Shown one piece after another: positions 20,806 through 45,629 of a DNA stretch of 64,000 bases. Below the pieces are notes generated by a model, which was not told the origin of the DNA, made no database searches, and saw nothing but the letters and a program-made list of their open reading frames with translations. This stretch comes from a virus (Duplodnaviria; Caudoviricetes): positions 64,001-128,000 of IMG/VR virus record IMGVR_UViG_2974511964_000001; one strand, written 5' to 3'. The first letter of the stretch is position 1, and each line of letters begins with the position of its first letter. Both the position numbers and the translations under genes were made by a program.

Positions 20806-21218
20806 GAGTTAAGGACACAAAAGTAGGTCAAAAATTATACCTTAATTACTATGATTCAGACAAGGACAAAGTGATTCAGAAAGAAGTGTATGCTACTAAG
20901 GTAAACACTCAGAGGCTCTATTTCAGTACTAATCCCCATACTGATAACCTTTCTTATCAGTGGGTGAAATCTTCTGGTAAGTACCCTAAGATATACCGAG
21001 CAAACTTTTTAGAAATGTATTATTTATCGGATATTCCAGAGTTCACCGGATACTGGGAAAAACATATCGAGCAACGAGCATACTACCATAAAACGTTGAC
21101 AGAAAAGCTTAATGCTATGCTAATGGAAGGTAACACTAAGAAGCTAAGATTAGTAGCGGATAAACTAGATTATATTGACAGATATACAACAAAAGATTAT
21201 TGGGAAGAAGGAAAATAA
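20802..21218 (+). CDS. Hypothetical protein
   Basis: ORF with SD GGAGGA. Confidence 0.75.
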   Translation: MRVKDTKVGQKLYLNYYDSDKDKVIQKEVYATKVNTQRLYFSTNPHTDNLSYQWVKSSGKYPKIYRANFLEMYYLSDIPEFTGYWEKHIEQRAYYHKTLTEKLNAMLMEGNTKKLRLVADKLDYIDRYTTKDYWEEGK

Positions 21219-37562: not shown

Positions 37563-37706
37563 TTGTGCTTGATTGAGATACAAATACAGTTTTAACACCT
37601 TATATAGTAGGAAAAATAATTGAAACGATTTTAATAAAAAGTGTTGACACTAACAACGCCTAGCTATATACTATAGTCATTCAAGTAAAGGAGAGGGCGC
37701 TACATT

Positions 37707-37904
37707 ATGAACGATAGAGAACCAGCACCAAGCAAAAAGCATAAGTTACCTAAATGGATAAAGTTACTATTATGGATTGCAGCCTTTTACATTCTATGGA
37801 ATGCAGGCAAGATGATAGTTGTTTACATTCTATGGTACCCGGGACGAATGCTATTAATGATAGGGTTAGCGTTATTATTAAGTGGACTATTCAACAGACA
37901 CTAG
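37707..37904 (+). CDS. Small membrane protein
   Basis: Own promoter, SD AAGGAG, hydrophobic. Confidence 0.7.
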   Translation: MNDREPAPSKKHKLPKWIKLLLWIAAFYILWNAGKMIVVYILWYPGRMLLMIGLALLLSGLFNRH

Positions 37905-37980
37905 AAAATATCGAAATAGGTATTGACATGATATGTAATTGATGATATTATAAAATAAAAAAGTAAAGGGGTCTTACATT

Positions 37981-38151
37981 ATGTTATTCTTAATCAAAAT
38001 GTTTATTATCGGAGCAATTATTGGGAGTGTCGCGGGAGTTATTGAAGGGCTGATTAATGCTAATGTAAAAAATGATGAGACAGCTAAAACGTTAAACCGA
38101 TATGTTACTGCAATAACTTGGCTTGTGTACATTTATGTATGTATCTTTTAA
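37981..38151 (+). CDS. Small membrane protein (56 aa, not in ORF track)
   Basis: Promoter at 37923, TACATT-ATG leader, MLFLIKMFIIGAIIG. Confidence 0.65.
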   Translation: MLFLIKMFIIGAIIGSVAGVIEGLINANVKNDETAKTLNRYVTAITWLVYIYVCIF

Positions 38152-38160
38152 GGAGGTATA

Positions 38161-38460
38161 ATGATGATTATCAATAAAAACAATGTCAGTAGTTTTAAGT
38201 TTCAACCCTATGACAACCGAACATATAACCGGCCTAACATTCTATACCGGCAAGCCACCGAGTTATATAACAGGGGCTTACAGTACGTTTTGAGGGGCTA
38301 TAAACCTCTTAATGATAACGGGGTTATAATTGCTTGCAATCCTACACCGGAACAAGTAGTGAACTACGTTGATACTACTAATTATAGTAGCTACTGGCTA
38401 GAGATTGCACGGCCATTAGGTGGGAAAATTAAGGTTAAAAAAGTTTCATTATATGGTTGA
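38161..38460 (+). CDS. Hypothetical early protein
   Basis: SD AAGGAGGT. Confidence 0.75.
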   Translation: MMIINKNNVSSFKFQPYDNRTYNRPNILYRQATELYNRGLQYVLRGYKPLNDNGVIIACNPTPEQVVNYVDTTNYSSYWLEIARPLGGKIKVKKVSLYG

Positions 38461-38519
38461 CTATAAAATAGTATAATGCTATGCTATACACGTGAGATAG
38501 TCAAGAAACAAAATACTAT

Positions 38520-38535
38520 TGTTTCACGTGAAACA
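38520..38535. promoter_or_regulatory. parS: parS site (ParB/Spo0J binding)
   Basis: TGTTTCACGTGAAACA, a perfect match to the consensus TGTTNCACGTGAAACA. Confidence 0.85.
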
Positions 38536-38556
38536 ACTGAAAGGAAGTAATACATT

Positions 38557-38964
38557 GTGAAATTCAAAGAGTTTATGAACCATGGTAAAACTGAAAACGA
38601 GATTAAGCAAGATATTTACAAGTATGGTAAGCAACTAGACACAATTGGAAAGCCGGCGAACAGCCATATGCAACTTTACAAGGTACAGCAGTACGACAGC
38701 GGACGCCGGGCAGTTAACCTTGGCACTTATGACATGTATTTTCAGAACATTGCAGAACTAAATTTATATCGCAAACCCTTGGTCAAGTTAGTGAGTGATG
38801 GAATTGACTATGTGTTATATTTTCAGATTATTCAGCAGGCTATTTTAATGGATAACAAGCGAAATGTAAAACTAGTAACAAAACCATCATTCTCGGACTT
38901 TTTGGGGGCTGATGATGATTTAACAAATTTATTTCAAAATACGCTTGACAAGTTGCGAGAATAA
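38557..38964 (+). CDS. Hypothetical early protein
   Basis: SD GAAAGGA, TACATT-GTG. Confidence 0.75.
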   Translation: MKFKEFMNHGKTENEIKQDIYKYGKQLDTIGKPANSHMQLYKVQQYDSGRRAVNLGTYDMYFQNIAELNLYRKPLVKLVSDGIDYVLYFQIIQQAILMDNKRNVKLVTKPSFSDFLGADDDLTNLFQNTLDKLRE

Positions 38965-39004
38965 CCGTATGCTATAGTTATTCAAGTAAAGGAGGTTATA
39001 GAAT

Positions 39005-39082
39005 ATGGCTACATTAAAACTAGTATTTATTATTGTAATTGCTATCTATGCTTACAAAAAGTATAAAGACAATCAGAAATAA
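39005..39082 (+). CDS. 25-aa membrane peptide (not in ORF track)
   Basis: Promoter at 38945, SD AAAGGAGG, MATLKLVFIIVIAIYAYKKYKDNQK. Confidence 0.6.
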   Translation: MATLKLVFIIVIAIYAYKKYKDNQK

Positions 39083-39159
39083 AGTTTTAAAAAGTTCTTG
39101 ACAGGTTATCAATTAAGATATATAATTAAGACATTAAATAAGAAAAGAGATAATACATT

Positions 39160-39435
39160 ATGAAAATTTTAGACACATTCGAATTACAACCACAATTAGA
39201 CCATGCACAATCATTCTACCGCAAGGCGTTCACTTTGCATAATAATGATGAAACAATTGACTTAAAATCTTATGATACTATTGTTGCAAAATGGAGCATG
39301 GGCGAAGTTATTGTTAACGGGACTTATTCGGCCACTACGTTGCGTCACATTAAGGAATTTATTTATCAGACTACTGGCGTTAGTGGTTTGACTAAAAAGG
39401 ATATTGAAACGGATTATTACTTGCCATATAATTAA
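39160..39435 (+). CDS. Conserved phage hypothetical protein
   Basis: SFYRKA...LKSYDTIVA...YSATTLRHIKEF. Confidence 0.75.
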   Translation: MKILDTFELQPQLDHAQSFYRKAFTLHNNDETIDLKSYDTIVAKWSMGEVIVNGTYSATTLRHIKEFIYQTTGVSGLTKKDIETDYYLPYN

Positions 39436-39508
39436 TTAAAAAGCTGTTGACACTCTGCAATAGATATGATAAGCTAACTATAACAAATTAAGAAAGAGGT
39501 TTTATATT

Positions 39509-39757
39509 ATGAAATTAGGAACAGCGATTGAACTTTTACAAGATGATACTTTTGACATGCAGGAAGCCTTTTACTCGGACCTAGCTGGTGATGTATATGC
39601 TGAATACACGCTTAGGGTAACTGATGCAGAAACCCTTTTGACCGAGCTAGAACTTGACTTGTCTGGTATTGATGACTATGACGCGTTACACGATGCGGTT
39701 GAGGACGAACTTGCTAATAGTTTTGATGGTGGCGTTGATGGTGTAGAAACAGTATAG
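39509..39757 (+). CDS. Very acidic small early protein
   Basis: About 23 D/E versus 2 K/R in 82 aa; own promoter. Confidence 0.75.
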   Translation: MKLGTAIELLQDDTFDMQEAFYSDLAGDVYAEYTLRVTDAETLLTELELDLSGIDDYDALHDAVEDELANSFDGGVDGVETV

Positions 39758-39767
39758 GGCGCAACGG

Positions 39768-39792
39768 ACTAGCTTAATAGGCTAGTTTTTTT
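39768..39792 (+). terminator. Intrinsic terminator
   Basis: ACTAGC/GCTAGT followed by a T-run. Confidence 0.8.
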
Positions 39793-40004
39793 ATTAAACT
39801 GATTGACATTCGTACAAGTCTATGCTTTCGGTTCTAGCTGTGATTGTGGCTAATTATACCGGACTAGTTTAAAATGGCTTAAAACGGCTTATATAACCTT
39901 GTAGGCATATGGTATAAAAATACAATTATTTAAAAATAAGGGTTGACAGCTTAGACTATTAAATGATATATTTTAATCATTGATAAGCAAGGAACAAGCA
40001 ATAA

Positions 40005-40020
40005 TGTTTCACGTGAAACA
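40005..40020. promoter_or_regulatory. parS: parS site (ParB/Spo0J binding)
   Basis: TGTTTCACGTGAAACA within the extended palindrome AATGTTTCACGTGAAACATT. Confidence 0.85.
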
Positions 40021-40095
40021 TTTAAAATAAACGCTTGACAAGCCCTCAACTATCATGTATACTTAAGTCATTCAATAAGGAAAGGACGTTATAAC

Positions 40096-40230
40096 ATGCT
40101 TATTATCAGTATGGAAACATTACCTAAAATCATTGAGCTAGCACTTGCAATCTATGGGGGTATTAAGCTAGCAGACAAGTTTTTCCCCAGCATTAAGCAA
40201 TCAAAATTCTTTGAAAGTTTTTTCAATTAA
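40096..40230 (+). CDS. 44-aa membrane peptide (not in ORF track)
   Basis: Promoter at 40034, SD AAAGGA. Confidence 0.6.
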   Translation: MLIISMETLPKIIELALAIYGGIKLADKFFPSIKQSKFFESFFN

Positions 40231-40297
40231 GCTATTGACATTTAAAAATAACAAGCTTATAATTAAGACATTAAATAAGAAGAGGAGTTAATACATT

Positions 40298-40669
40298 ATG
40301 AGCAATGAAATTAGAGATGGCCTAATGAACAACGTGACACGGTATGATGATATTCAGGAATACGGAAAGTATAACGCAGGGGCAACAACGGAAGACCTAC
40401 AAGAATTGATTTATAATGGTTGGATTGCTGAATTGACACCGGGAACTTACAATGGTGCACTTGATAAGTTTGACCGGGTCACTAAGCTAACTGATAATGA
40501 TATTATTGGCGCTATTAAGTTGAATATAGCGGAAGATGACACAATAATGGAAACAATCGAATCTTTTTATTCCGGTGATAGTACCTCTGATATGCAAGCA
40601 TTAGCTTATACGGAAATTTATGATGTGTTTACAATTGGTCAACGATTATATGTTGACATGGATAAATAA
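40298..40669 (+). CDS. Acidic early protein
   Basis: SD GAGGAG, TACATT-ATG. Confidence 0.75.
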   Translation: MSNEIRDGLMNNVTRYDDIQEYGKYNAGATTEDLQELIYNGWIAELTPGTYNGALDKFDRVTKLTDNDIIGAIKLNIAEDDTIMETIESFYSGDSTSDMQALAYTEIYDVFTIGQRLYVDMDK

Positions 40670-40718
40670 ACCTGATATACTGTATTCAGTTAATAAATAA
40701 GAAAAGGAAGTTATAAAC

Positions 40719-41021
40719 ATGACAGCAAGTGAAAAATTAACACAACTAATTGAAAACGATAAGTTAACGGACGACCAACTAGATAACTTGAATAACTGGG
40801 GTATTCTAACCGTATCAGAGTTGAGAGAATATTTAATTGACTTGATTCATAAATTAAAAAATGAAACTTATAGCGTTGACTATGAGGAAGCAGTTGTAGC
40901 ATTATATGATTTACTTGATTATAGTGATGATTATTTTGTGATTTATGATGAGGCCGACGTAAGCGAATTAGATTTTGATACCTTGATGGACGCCCTAGAC
41001 ACTGCACTAGATGTTGACTAG
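40719..41021 (+). CDS. Very acidic early protein
   Basis: D/E-rich; own promoter embedded in the end of the upstream ORF. Confidence 0.75.
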   Translation: MTASEKLTQLIENDKLTDDQLDNLNNWGILTVSELREYLIDLIHKLKNETYSVDYEEAVVALYDLLDYSDDYFVIYDEADVSELDFDTLMDALDTALDVD

Positions 41022-41037
41022 AAAAGAGGAAATTAAA

Positions 41038-41409
41038 ATGAAACTATATAAATTATTAATTGCTGTTGTTGCCGGGGTTACATTGTCACTAGTTACCGCA
41101 TATAATGCGGATGCTAGCAGGCCGAATTATGCTTATACCTTAACACGGACTAAGCAACACGCTGTTAAGCTTACCAATACCGGACGTACTGAAAACATGT
41201 ACCGAGTAACCGTTAAGACTGGTAAAGCTGTAAGATGGTATTACATGGCTTTAAATGCTAAACAGTCATGGCTAGTTAAACAGCCTCGTAAGTATAGTGT
41301 TACTGTTCGGCGTGTATCTAAAAGTGATGAGAAGCGCAATGCAGACCCACGTAACCACTTTACACCATTAGGAATTAGAAACACTCAACGAACCGTATGG
41401 AATCGTTAG
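41038..41409 (+). CDS. Secreted basic protein
   Basis: Signal peptide MKLYKLLIAVVAGVTLSLVTAYNADA; K/R-rich mature part. Confidence 0.7.
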   Translation: MKLYKLLIAVVAGVTLSLVTAYNADASRPNYAYTLTRTKQHAVKLTNTGRTENMYRVTVKTGKAVRWYYMALNAKQSWLVKQPRKYSVTVRRVSKSDEKRNADPRNHFTPLGIRNTQRTVWNR

Positions 41410-41436
41410 AATAGGATAATTGGAGGAATTTAAAAA

Positions 41437-41598
41437 ATGGGATTTACTGAAGTTTTAACAATTGTATTTGTAGTATGTAAGCTACTAGGTATTATTACTT
41501 GGTCATGGTGGCTTGTATTGTTACCTGAAATTATTGCCGGTGTACTTTATATCAGTTTTGTAGGAATTACATTATTCGGAGTGTTTAAACGCTACTAG
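41437..41598 (+). CDS. 53-aa membrane protein (LKL.G.I.WSWW.V..P family; not in ORF track)
   Basis: SD GGAGG; LTIVFVVCKLLGIITWSWWLVLLP. Confidence 0.7.
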   Translation: MGFTEVLTIVFVVCKLLGIITWSWWLVLLPEIIAGVLYISFVGITLFGVFKRY

Positions 41599-41608
41599 AG
41601 TAATTAAG

Positions 41609-41635
41609 GACTAGTCTATCATGGCTAGTCTTTTT
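41609..41635 (+). terminator. Intrinsic terminator
   Basis: GACTAG/CTAGTC followed by TTTTT. Confidence 0.8.
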
Positions 41636-41649
41636 GTATGGTCATTGAA

Positions 41650-41940
41650 TAGCGTGTATATAAGCGTGTATATAAGCGTGTATACGAGCCGTTATAGGTG
41701 CATGGCAGTATATAGGGCAATAGGTAGTGGGATAGCAATATATAGACAATGTACATTAGTACATACATACGAGCCTACAATACATACATACCTAAGAGGT
41801 AGACAGTACATACATATATACGAGCCTAGCAATACACACATATAGATATATATACGAGCCTAGCAATACACACATATAGATATATATACGAGCCTACAAT
41901 ATATAGTCAATAGGTAGGCAATACATACATACGAGCCTAA
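41650..41940. repeat. Non-coding tandem/dispersed repeat array
   Basis: AGCGTGTATATA x3; ATACGAGCC x6; an exact 34-bp tandem duplication at 41814-41881. Confidence 0.9.
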
Positions 41941-42761
41941 GGTTCACCTATCTTACTAATAATATTACAGTACACAGCCAGCCTAGTTAGTTGACCAGCT
42001 AACCAATCACGTATACAACTAGCCGATTGCTTAATCACTGTACTAGCTAACCAATATGCAATCATATCATGCTGGTTTATATCAACTTATTATGGCTACA
42101 TGTATAGGCTACCTATATACGGCTTATATATGGGCGTGTATTAACAGTTAGCCGTATATAGGTGTAATTATACTGGTGGCAATATAAACGGCTTAGAATG
42201 GCTGCTAGGGGGCTTATATAGGGCGCTTATATTGGTAGCCTATTGCTGCATACAAAAATAACCCTATATACTTTCATATAGGGGTTGACCAGTGGCTAAA
42301 TACATGTTATAATTAGTTATACAATAAAAGAGGAGGTAAAGATAAAACTACATAGTACGGTTACCATGGCTACATAGTCCAAAAGCCTTACTAGTTCTGT
42401 ACGAGGAGTGTATACTTTTTTAAAAATTAACTTAACAATTCCCTAATCATATCCGGTATAGCTTAGACCGTGTAGCTGTGGTGCTGGTACTATTGAGCTG
42501 TTATTAACCTCCTTTACTTTATATACTAAGTATACAGCTATATGGGGTAAATGTCAACCTTTTTAGCAAATTAATTTAAGCTATACCAATTCTAAAATAG
42601 GTCAATACTCACCATAGGCTACATCGACTATAAACGCCGGTATAATAACATTCCTTAAAATAACGATAAAACCGTACCAATTTATTTTGAAATAGTTGTT
42701 GACAGGTTACAAACTAGGGTATATACTATAGTCAATCAATAAGAAAAGAGGAAATTACATT

Positions 42762-43016
42762 ATGAAATTAGATATTAACGTATTAAACCTATTACTCAAC
42801 AAGGAAACCATCCGCTTTATTGCTCAACCTGATAAGAACGGCTTCAGCAAGTCGGTAGTTGTTGGCTCGGTTGGTCATGTATACTCATTAGAGAGAGTAA
42901 GTAGCTTTGAACCATGTAGCAGTCTTACGAACAACAACGTTATCTTAGATGGGGTTAATAAGGATTATAAAACCTTGATGGCGTATCTCAAAGCTAATAA
43001 ATACGAATTATTTTAA
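42762..43016 (+). CDS. Hypothetical early protein
   Basis: Promoter at 42699, TACATT-ATG. Confidence 0.75.
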   Translation: MKLDINVLNLLLNKETIRFIAQPDKNGFSKSVVVGSVGHVYSLERVSSFEPCSSLTNNNVILDGVNKDYKTLMAYLKANKYELF

Positions 43017-43086
43017 ATAGTTCTTGACAAGCCCGAGTATAGGGCATATGATTAAGACATTAAATAAGGAAAAGGAGTATTACATT

Positions 43087-43332
43087 ATGGAAAAACGTGA
43101 AGCATTTGCAAGCATTTCAATTACTAACACAACGGCGCTACTTATTACAGACATCGACGAAGCAGGTGAAAACGTGACCTATTGCGTCAGTGTACTGGAC
43201 GAAGCACAAGCGCCTAAAAGCCACCATGCTAAAATTAGTTACACTATTAAAGATAACGAACCATACTTTAATAGCATTCTAGGACGAATGCATTTGTCTG
43301 AAGCAATGAAGATTACACCAGTTGAAATTTAA
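43087..43332 (+). CDS. Hypothetical early protein
   Basis: SD AAGGAG, TACATT-ATG. Confidence 0.75.
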   Translation: MEKREAFASISITNTTALLITDIDEAGENVTYCVSVLDEAQAPKSHHAKISYTIKDNEPYFNSILGRMHLSEAMKITPVEI

Positions 43333-43408
43333 TTTTGAAAAGTAGTTGACAGGTAGCCATATACCTGCTATACTATAATCAATAAATAAGGAAAGCAGGA
43401 ATTACATT

Positions 43409-43741
43409 ATGATTTTAACAAGCATATTAGACACGGTAAATAGCATTAACGAAGCATGGTTACGGGAATCGTTAAAACGAGAAGCAACCGCTATTAATAA
43501 CAGCACCGATACCCATATGGAAGTTTATAATAACAAGCCTAATCATTTTACAATTGTGGTTGATGATTCGCTTGAATACATGTTAGATACTACCGACTAT
43601 ACAGCTGAACTAACACACCACCCATCAATCTTTAATGATGACACGTTGGAAACCTTACTAGTTGCTATCGTCGATGACAGTGATGATTTTGAAGATAAGC
43701 TAGCATTTGAAGTTATCATGGCTATTTATCATACACTATAA
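43409..43741 (+). CDS. Acidic early protein
   Basis: Promoter at 43347, TACATT-ATG. Confidence 0.75.
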   Translation: MILTSILDTVNSINEAWLRESLKREATAINNSTDTHMEVYNNKPNHFTIVVDDSLEYMLDTTDYTAELTHHPSIFNDDTLETLLVAIVDDSDDFEDKLAFEVIMAIYHTL

Positions 43742-43962
43742 AGCAATTAGGGTTATCCATGGGGGTAGCCCTTTTATATACATCCGTTTATACGCCACTA
43801 TAAGCTTGTTACGGACGTTTTATATTAGGGGTAGTATAATTACACTAGGCATAGTCTAAAACGTCTCACAGGGCTTGTATGGACGTTATAGAGGTATTGA
43901 CACCACCATTATACTATGTTATGCTATATTAGAGTTGAAAGCAGTTGAAAGGTGGTACACTA

Positions 43963-44223
43963 ATGACTAATCATAACAAGCAACAACAAGCATATGCAAC
44001 ACCAGTTAAGGACAAGCTACGGCTATTAACAGGTAAAGTTATCACGCTTAATACCTATAACACTAACTACCCAGTTGAATTTGTCGAACCATTGTTATTC
44101 TATATTGCTTATGGCTTACCTGATAAACTAGACACTAACACATTGACTAGCTATTTCAATCAACACTACACCAAGGGTACACCACTTAATAAAGTAGGAC
44201 TGCACTTAATTAACCCTCACTAG
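43963..44223 (+). CDS. Hypothetical early protein
   Basis: Promoter at 43896, SD GAAAGGTGG. Confidence 0.65.
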   Translation: MTNHNKQQQAYATPVKDKLRLLTGKVITLNTYNTNYPVEFVEPLLFYIAYGLPDKLDTNTLTSYFNQHYTKGTPLNKVGLHLINPH

Positions 44224-44412
44224 GCTATTTTGATAGCTATAAATTAATTTCAATTAGGTGGTTGCATTCAATTGCCTAATATGGTATATTTAAAGAGTAG
44301 AAAAACAAGACATCAACCGGCAAAATAAAATAAATTAAATTCAATTAGTTGTTGACATGTTAGAATATGAGGTTTATACTTAAGTCATTCAATAAGCAAA
44401 GGGGTTTTATAC

Positions 44413-44754
44413 ATGATTAAATTAGAGAACACGATTAAAGTTTTTGTACCAGTAACTAACAATGACGGGGTAAAGGTTGACTTAAACCCTGAAATTAAAG
44501 CCGCCTTAACGGTTATCGGGGGCGCCACTACCTATACAGCCCGAGGCAATTGGACGGACAATAACAGGCTGTACACCGATAACATTAACGTTATGCAGTT
44601 CAATACTATGGACTTTAACAAGGACACTACTCGGGTTATCAGTGACCTAATTCGTGCAATCTTTATTAAAGCCGAGCAACTAGCCGTTAGCGTTGAAATT
44701 AACGGGGTTCTATACATTTTAGAAAGTACTGAAGATATTAAAGAATTATTTTAA
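44413..44754 (+). CDS. DUF3574/PII-like fold protein (possible SAM-lyase relative)
   Basis: FVP...GGATT..ARGNW...D...QLAVSV pattern. Confidence 0.5.
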   Translation: MIKLENTIKVFVPVTNNDGVKVDLNPEIKAALTVIGGATTYTARGNWTDNNRLYTDNINVMQFNTMDFNKDTTRVISDLIRAIFIKAEQLAVSVEINGVLYILESTEDIKELF

Positions 44755-44825
44755 AATAGCTGTTGACAACTTAAAAAGTAGGGTATATACTTAAGTCATT
44801 AAATAAGAAAAGGAAGTTATACATT

Positions 44826-44963
44826 ATGACATCACGCAAAAACAACTGCTCAACTATCAAGGCCACTAAGGGTAACCAAGTTCGTTACTTGTCTACACGG
44901 GACGAAACTAAAGGATTAGACATTCAATTAGACTTATTGGAGTGGACACTAACAGCTATCTAA
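44826..44963 (+). CDS. 45-aa early protein (not in ORF track)
   Basis: Promoter at 44764, SD AAGGA, TACATT-ATG. Confidence 0.65.
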   Translation: MTSRKNNCSTIKATKGNQVRYLSTRDETKGLDIQLDLLEWTLTAI

Positions 44964-44980
44964 CAATATTATAATTATTA

Positions 44981-45009
44981 ACGGCTATCCATTAGGACGG
45001 CCGTTTTTT
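44981..45009 (+). terminator. Intrinsic terminator
   Basis: ACGGC/GCCGT followed by a T-run. Confidence 0.8.
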
Positions 45010-45629
45010 GTTGTCTATAATAGCATATCATGCACAATGCTATATAACGCATTGTAAGCCGTTCTAATCCATTTTAAGCTAGGCCGGTGTAATTACACTA
45101 ATATATAGATTAACACTCTTACACGCTATGTATGAAGCATACAGCTATACTAACGATATTATTAACACGTTACAGCGTGCTACAATAAAATTATATTATA
45201 ATTCGTGTATAAATTAACACGGTATATGCAATCCGCTATAATGTTACATTTATATTATTTTTATAAAATTCCCTTGACATTGTCGGCGTATAGTGTTATG
45301 TATCACACCCCCTCCCCCCTGTCAAGCCCCATACATAGGGGTACCTTGTCTACCTGCCTCGCTCAACCTTAGGCACAAATATTTTAGCCCAAAATTTTAG
45401 CATATTATACGGTATACTGAACACTATAATGAACTCCCATATGCACTGCCATATACCCTCCCCCCATTAAATAAATGAGCAGCTAATTCTAAATACCGGT
45501 ATATAAACAAATCCTAAAAACGCCCCCATAAAATTTTTGGCCTAATCAAGGCTATCGTAAATAAAAAGACTGCTCAATTAAGAGTAGCCTTTAGAATACT
45601 AATATTGAATTGTACTTTTATCAGTATTA

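Follow-up and report, generated by a model that had tools for sequence, protein, structure and literature searches.

Two parS sites in an early module

The window, which is the whole stretch of DNA analysed here (64,000 nt, bases 64001-128000 of the 137,973-bp virus record IMGVR_UViG_2974511964_000001), contains two perfect copies of the 16-mer parS sequence TGTTTCACGTGAAACA, at 38520-38535 (site A) and 40005-40020 (site B). A scan of the window allowing up to two mismatches returned no third match, and the rest of the 137,973-bp phage genome contains no parS beyond these two. At least two matches occurred in 0 of 100 dinucleotide-preserving shuffles of the window (shuffle mean, 0.03), and a chance origin of the pair was rejected (2 observed versus 0.03 expected). 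Both sites are intergenic; site A is flanked by the open reading frames (ORFs) 38161-38460 and 38557-38964, and site B by ORFs 39509-39757 and 40096-40230. The features of the locus (positions in the window) are as follows.

37644-45372, plus strand: early module with both parS sites; ~17 near-consensus promoters, with a small ORF after each
38457-38485, plus strand: promoter PA, TTGACT-17-TATGCT with a TG extension, sigma-A-type; 34 nt separate the end of its -10 from site A
38498-38519, plus strand: A-rich leader TAGTCAAGAAACAAAATACTAT, which moves with parS as one ~36-nt unit (cassette alignment)
38520-38535, no strand assigned: parS site A, an exact TGTTTCACGTGAAACA inside the 135-aa gene's 5' leader
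38557-38964, plus strand: 135-aa early gene directly 3' of site A; phrog_33154, no assigned function
39766-39788, plus strand: terminator-like hairpin and T-run, ending the upstream unit ahead of the site B region
39943-39972, plus strand: promoter PB1, TTGACA-18-TATATT with TG, sigma-A-type; its -10 ends 32 nt before site B
40005-40020, no strand assigned: parS site B, an exact TGTTTCACGTGAAACA with a promoter on either side, the two in tandem
40035-40063, plus strand: promoter PB2, TTGACA-17-TATACT; its -35 starts 14 nt past site B, and it drives the 44-aa ORF 40096-40230

The early module (about 37.6-45.4 kb, ~7.8 kb) has the parS sites near its upstream end and stops at a convergent junction with genes on the minus strand. 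An earlier, sequence-only reading of this DNA had described two perfect parS sites in the early region, both intergenic and downstream of promoters at 38457 and 39943, with no ORF between the second of these promoters and the next. The scan and its shuffles bear out the first point, the ORF and promoter positions the second, and the lack of any plus-strand ORF after PB1 and before the promoter at 40035 the third.

Following the terminator, positions 39790-40095 form a 300-bp stretch without genes that contains repeated GGACTAG motifs; a promoter-like TTGACA at 39803 has too short a spacer, and the PB1-parS-PB2 unit then comes. Proteins neighbouring the parS sites were assigned only to PHROGs families of unassigned function. 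ESM Atlas matches of these proteins to portal fragments were set aside (too few shared features to trust), and the AlphaFold model of the 135-aa protein was of low confidence (mean pLDDT, 64.5) and not good enough to support a fold search. A box scan of the phage genome found no Noc site, cre, CodY box, or LexA box and a single perfect DnaA box, which is distant from the parS sites; no host-regulator box besides parS was enriched.

In its layout the module is similar to the host-takeover modules found in the terminal repeats of SPO1- and K-like phages, and the annotation of the phage K record gives an 8.5-kb terminal repeat of small genes. From the layout of the region, we infer that the early module with both parS sites may be a terminal repeat, in which case each virion would carry four parS.

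Phage identity and relatives

The region shares 85-92% identity with three L. plantarum myoviruses of the genus Harbinvirus (Herelleviridae), namely Semele, Bacchae, and Lpa804; LP65 and LpeD are more distant relatives. In the published description of L. plantarum phages, lysogeny genes were not found and most genes were unassigned, and the authors considered the phages most likely purely virulent (PMC6669764); parS and terminal repeats are both unmentioned in that paper.

Sister phages scanned for parS were Bacchae, Lpa804, and Semele (Dionysus and Bromius lay outside the comparison), and, of the 22 metagenome homologues of the 135-aa protein, contexts were read at six JGI/NCBI loci. Within the homologous early region, perfect sites number two in Bacchae (plus one variant) and three in Lpa804, and Semele has three one-mismatch sites; LpeD, which belongs to another genus (Elpedvirus), has two perfect sites beside homologous genes. 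Among the metagenome relatives, L276 carries sites A and C, L273 sites A and B, and L277 site C. The orthologue of site A is present in Bacchae, Lpa804, Semele, L273, and L276, and a homologous promoter-parS-promoter unit stands at site B in Semele, Bacchae, Lpa804, and L273. In Bacchae and Lpa804, site C stands ahead of a homologue of ORF 39509-39757, an ORF that has no site here. Conservation in relatives, proposed earlier as a check, was thus found (two or three sites in Bacchae, Lpa804, Semele, LpeD, and L276); site positions are partly non-orthologous, and therefore the number of sites is kept better than their place.

No parS was detected in LP65, the siphovirus Lenus, SPO1, phage K, or phiEF24C; LP65 infects the same host species, yet is without parS. 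A control scan of phi29 returned four copies of TGTTCCACGTGAAACA. Listeria phage A511 has a single perfect parS (L268:1639-1654; record positions 21138-21153; minus strand), which overlaps the GTG start codon and ribosome-binding-site spacer of gp51 among tRNA-repair genes and lies outside the annotated 3.1-kb terminal repeat.

Several matches elsewhere are recorded as side observations. The IMG/VR viral contigs L023, L062, and L008/L022 have four or five perfect 16-mers within <1-3 kb and have the appearance of genuine centromere arrays belonging to plasmid-like elements or prophages. In searches of landfill, compost, and digester metagenomes with window positions 38518-38535 and 40003-40024 (runs X1, X5, and X13), many contigs match the 16-mer alone and their flanks diverge; a few have two copies 19-34 nt apart, which reflects the commonness of the site in these communities, not the phage. 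An RNA-library contig touches a sister-type site, which is not proof of transcription.

Host ParABS and absence of phage ParB

The earlier observation that the window is without parA and parB extends to the whole phage genome, in which no ParB_N (PF02195), HTH_ParB (PF17762), or ParA-type AAA_31 (PF13614) domain was found. A self-contained ParABS cassette of the plasmid or plasmid-prophage type was ruled out by this absence of parA and parB from the 137,973 bp.

A host proxy was chosen with the L. plantarum-specific recA primer planF (PMC6343053) across 401 Lactobacillaceae genomes. The sole exact match was genome G289 (one contig, 3,242,936 bp), a proxy identified by this primer only; primer pREV was too conserved to pick it out. 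G289 has six perfect copies of TGTTTCACGTGAAACA and four one-mismatch copies, two of the latter being TGTTCCACGTGAAACA. Measured from dnaA, the ten copies span -237 to +230 kb, no farther away than 7.3% of the genome length, and they are alike in the 16-mer only, with unrelated flanks. The genome encodes a noc-parA-parB locus, and its ParB (296 aa) is closest to Bacillus subtilis Spo0J (6sdk; E = 4e-67), with a well-conserved helix-turn-helix. The locus (C1:438269-441000) lies ~438 kb from dnaA and outside the ten-parS span; in B. subtilis it is next to the origin. Across the Lactobacillaceae, the consensus TGTTNCACGTGAAACA was found in 292 of the 401 genomes.

The earlier reading was to be abandoned if the host lacked ParB or used a different parS. 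Since the proxy has a Spo0J-like ParB together with ParA and Noc, and the same 16-mer in six perfect copies near its origin, the host-parS reading is refuted on neither count. Its description of the sites as host-type centromere sites stands and can be made more specific, in that they are the host's own 16-mer carried by a most likely virulent phage that has no ParB. The consequences that it envisaged, ParB-SMC positioning of phage DNA, segregation in a carrier state, titration of ParB, and damping of early promoters, are candidates. The variant at Semele site B is TGTTCCACGTGAAACA, a change at position 5 that occurs twice in the host proxy and is also the form found in phi29. At site A, Bacchae and Semele have a central CG-to-TG change; this variant is absent from the host proxy, and these may therefore be weakened sites.

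The small number of host sites bears on whether the phage sites act as a decoy. Replicating phage DNA would multiply them far above the host's ten and drain ParB from the host origin, and SMC loading and ParA control would be lost with ParB, disturbing segregation, replication control, or division. Arithmetically, hundreds of phage copies would be expected to outcompete the host, because it has only about ten sites and because ~20 Spo0J dimers are present per site in B. subtilis (PMC4052768); the parS sites also lie amid host-takeover-like early genes. The gain is nevertheless doubtful for a phage that lyses the cell anyway, and a decoy needs many genome copies and would therefore act late, which leaves the promoter-linked early position unexplained. 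B. subtilis suffers only mildly from losing Spo0J. Titration of ParB is thus quantitatively plausible but of doubtful benefit, and we regard it as improbable.

Promoter-parS cassettes

Cassette anatomy was surveyed at 13 parS sites in five phages. Nine sites lie 32-34 nt past the -10 of a TTGACN-17/18-TAnnnT promoter, which places them at about +26 to +43 of the transcript (assuming a start ~7 nt past the -10). At 6 of the 13, the -35 of the next promoter begins 14-24 nt downstream (exactly 14 nt in four), and 4 of the 13 are without an upstream promoter. Across eight aligned cassettes, the 16-mer is the best-kept block after the promoter hexamers, with a loosely kept CAAGRAACAA leader on its 5' side. 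Two environmental relatives (L274 and L275) retain the site A gene together with its promoter and ribosome-binding site and miss exactly the ~36-nt leader-plus-parS. The unit is therefore discrete and dispensable for expression of its gene and, given so clean an absence of site A, for viability as well. The promoter-linked spacing of parS and the ~36-nt leader-plus-parS unit are new here.

Both deletion-type leader variants were located (L274:100-272 and L275:770-938); a CACGTGA repeat that occurs upstream of the missing segment and within parS could have mediated the deletion. Semele has an inserted gene between the promoter-parS unit and the 135-aa gene and a second copy of the unit directly before the 135-aa gene, so that the site A unit is duplicated around the insertion (L122:4020-4473); both copies have the central CG-to-TG/CA change.

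This anatomy raises the alternative that ParB is mainly a borrowed transcription factor. ParB sitting at about +26 to +43 would block or pace RNA polymerase leaving the upstream early promoter; 14 nt ahead of the next -35, in the zone used by activators and UP elements, it would tune the downstream promoter, and early expression would follow host ParB and cell-cycle state. Both spacings speak for such a role, the 32-34 nt in 9 of 13 sites having been kept despite diverged leaders, as does the repression of promoters by Pseudomonas aeruginosa ParB at parS3 and parS4 (PMC5521831). The constant spacing may, however, be inherited rather than selected, because the cassettes look homologous. The upstream promoter is missing at four sites, and the relatives without site A retain the same promoter and ribosome-binding site. 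B. subtilis genes within Spo0J spreading zones are unsilenced (Breier and Grossman 2007, as cited in PMC4052768), which argues against damping of promoters by spreading. As the main function of the sites, transcriptional control is possible but unlikely.

The sites could also act without host ParB, as an operator for an unrecognised phage protein, as an RNA hairpin in early leaders (a stabiliser, attenuator, or terminator), or as a packaging signal. They are transcribed within 5' leaders, the isolated 24-nt RNA folds better than shuffles (z = -2.7), the central CG-to-TG variants would sit in the hairpin loop, and every neighbouring protein is without an assigned function. The hairpin is weak, however (-5.4 to -6.4 kcal/mol), and is missing from the best fold of the site A leader; the leaders fold no more stably than shuffles, the terminator scan does not list the palindrome, and the stem shows no covariation, the host's parS being kept letter for letter. 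An intrinsic terminator or structured RNA leader was ruled out by the weak hairpin, the shuffle-like leaders, and invariance in place of covariation. A packaging or repeat-boundary signal was rejected on the distance from parS to parS, which varies from 0.4 to 5.1 kb among phages. We consider any function of the sites apart from host ParB very improbable.

Proposed role of host ParB

On balance, we favour the phage 16-mers as genuine loading sites for the host's chromosomal Spo0J-type ParB, with a phi29-like piggy-back without spores as the likeliest benefit. The basis for host ParB is the identity to host sites, the host ParABS genes, the absence of a phage ParB, conservation over two phage genera, and the promoter-linked cassette. 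Judged from these sequences, host ParB probably binds the phage parS sites, and we infer every consequence that binding would have for the phage.

Soon after phage entry, host ParB would nucleate at the early-region sites and, once closed into a CTP clamp, would spread across some kilobases and bridge DNA. Spo0J is described as spreading over 10-20 kb, bridging separate DNA molecules, and recruiting SMC (PMC4052768). Phage DNA would in this way be tied to the ParB/ParA/SMC machinery of the host origin region, and a phage genome stalled in a slow-growing or starved cell would be kept with the nucleoid and carried until growth returns. ParB may modulate early promoters too, because the sites lie at about +26 to +43 of the early transcript.

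Carriage in a stalled infection ranks first as the single most likely purpose, although we put it forward tentatively. Partition offers less to a single non-replicating genome than to a plasmid, and a documented stalled or carrier state is absent for these phages.

A broader proposal is that large lytic phages that have long terminal repeats, Herelleviridae among them, generally make use of orphan host parS in first-expressed, probably terminally repeated DNA. ParB would load on entering DNA, and bridging or condensate formation would join the repeat-bearing genome ends or sister genomes; by recruiting SMC as well, ParB might shape the opening phase of infection. On this view, a small insertable unit of promoter, leader, and parS, found in some relatives and missing in others, would spread from one early leader to another. 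We hold this generalisation to be distinctly improbable.

A literature search found no published report of parS in Lactobacillus phages. If host ParB loads on these phages, as we favour, the phi29 trick is not specific to sporulation, and would represent a wider means for virulent phages to connect to the machinery of bacterial chromosome segregation and condensin. Two points would become testable in a tractable lactic acid bacterium, namely whether "strictly lytic" Herelleviridae pass through a concealed carried or stalled state and whether ParB can act on phage early promoters. Loading of this kind would also bear on phage persistence in food fermentations and in L. plantarum starter and probiotic cultures.

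Comparison with known systems

Firmicutes chromosomal ParABS (B. subtilis Soj-Spo0J-parS, with SMC loading) uses the identical 16-bp site, and the host here has the full set with origin-proximal sites; the phage differs in carrying the cis site alone, on a replicon without known stable inheritance.

Centromere sites on a phage genome are also a feature of P1 ParABS and N15 SopAB. Those of N15 are dispersed and near phage promoters. P1 and N15 are, however, temperate and encode dedicated ParA and ParB proteins of distinct site specificity, whereas the phage here has neither protein and uses the host site.

Proximity of a ParB-family site to promoters has parallels among repressors. KorB is a repressor next to its site. 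In P. aeruginosa, parS3 and parS4 likewise lie close to promoters (PMC5521831), but no Firmicutes Spo0J-type ParB, the type considered here, is known to act as a repressor (PMC4052768).

Phages phi29 and Nf are virulent, likewise without ParB, and equipped with several host chromosomal parS, host Spo0J being the presumed or shown binder (Meijer et al. 2005, as summarised in PMC2731898). For phi29, the same source gives five parS, versus the four copies of TGTTCCACGTGAAACA in our control scan, and involves Spo0J in moving the stalled genome into the prespore (PMC2731898). The phage here is a 138-kb Herelleviridae myovirus and phi29 a 19-kb protein-primed podovirus. Unlike the host of phi29, L. 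plantarum is, to our knowledge, non-sporulating and without Spo0A; if so, entrapment in spores with the help of Spo0A boxes cannot be the purpose. In further contrast to phi29, the box scan found no companion host-regulator boxes in the phage here, and parS is built into promoter-leader cassettes of the early module. With the host's own parS, neither ParB nor ParA of its own, and several copies kept in relatives, the phage appears from its sequence to carry a device of the phi29 kind, here in another phage family, with a host that does not sporulate, and set in promoter-leader cassettes.
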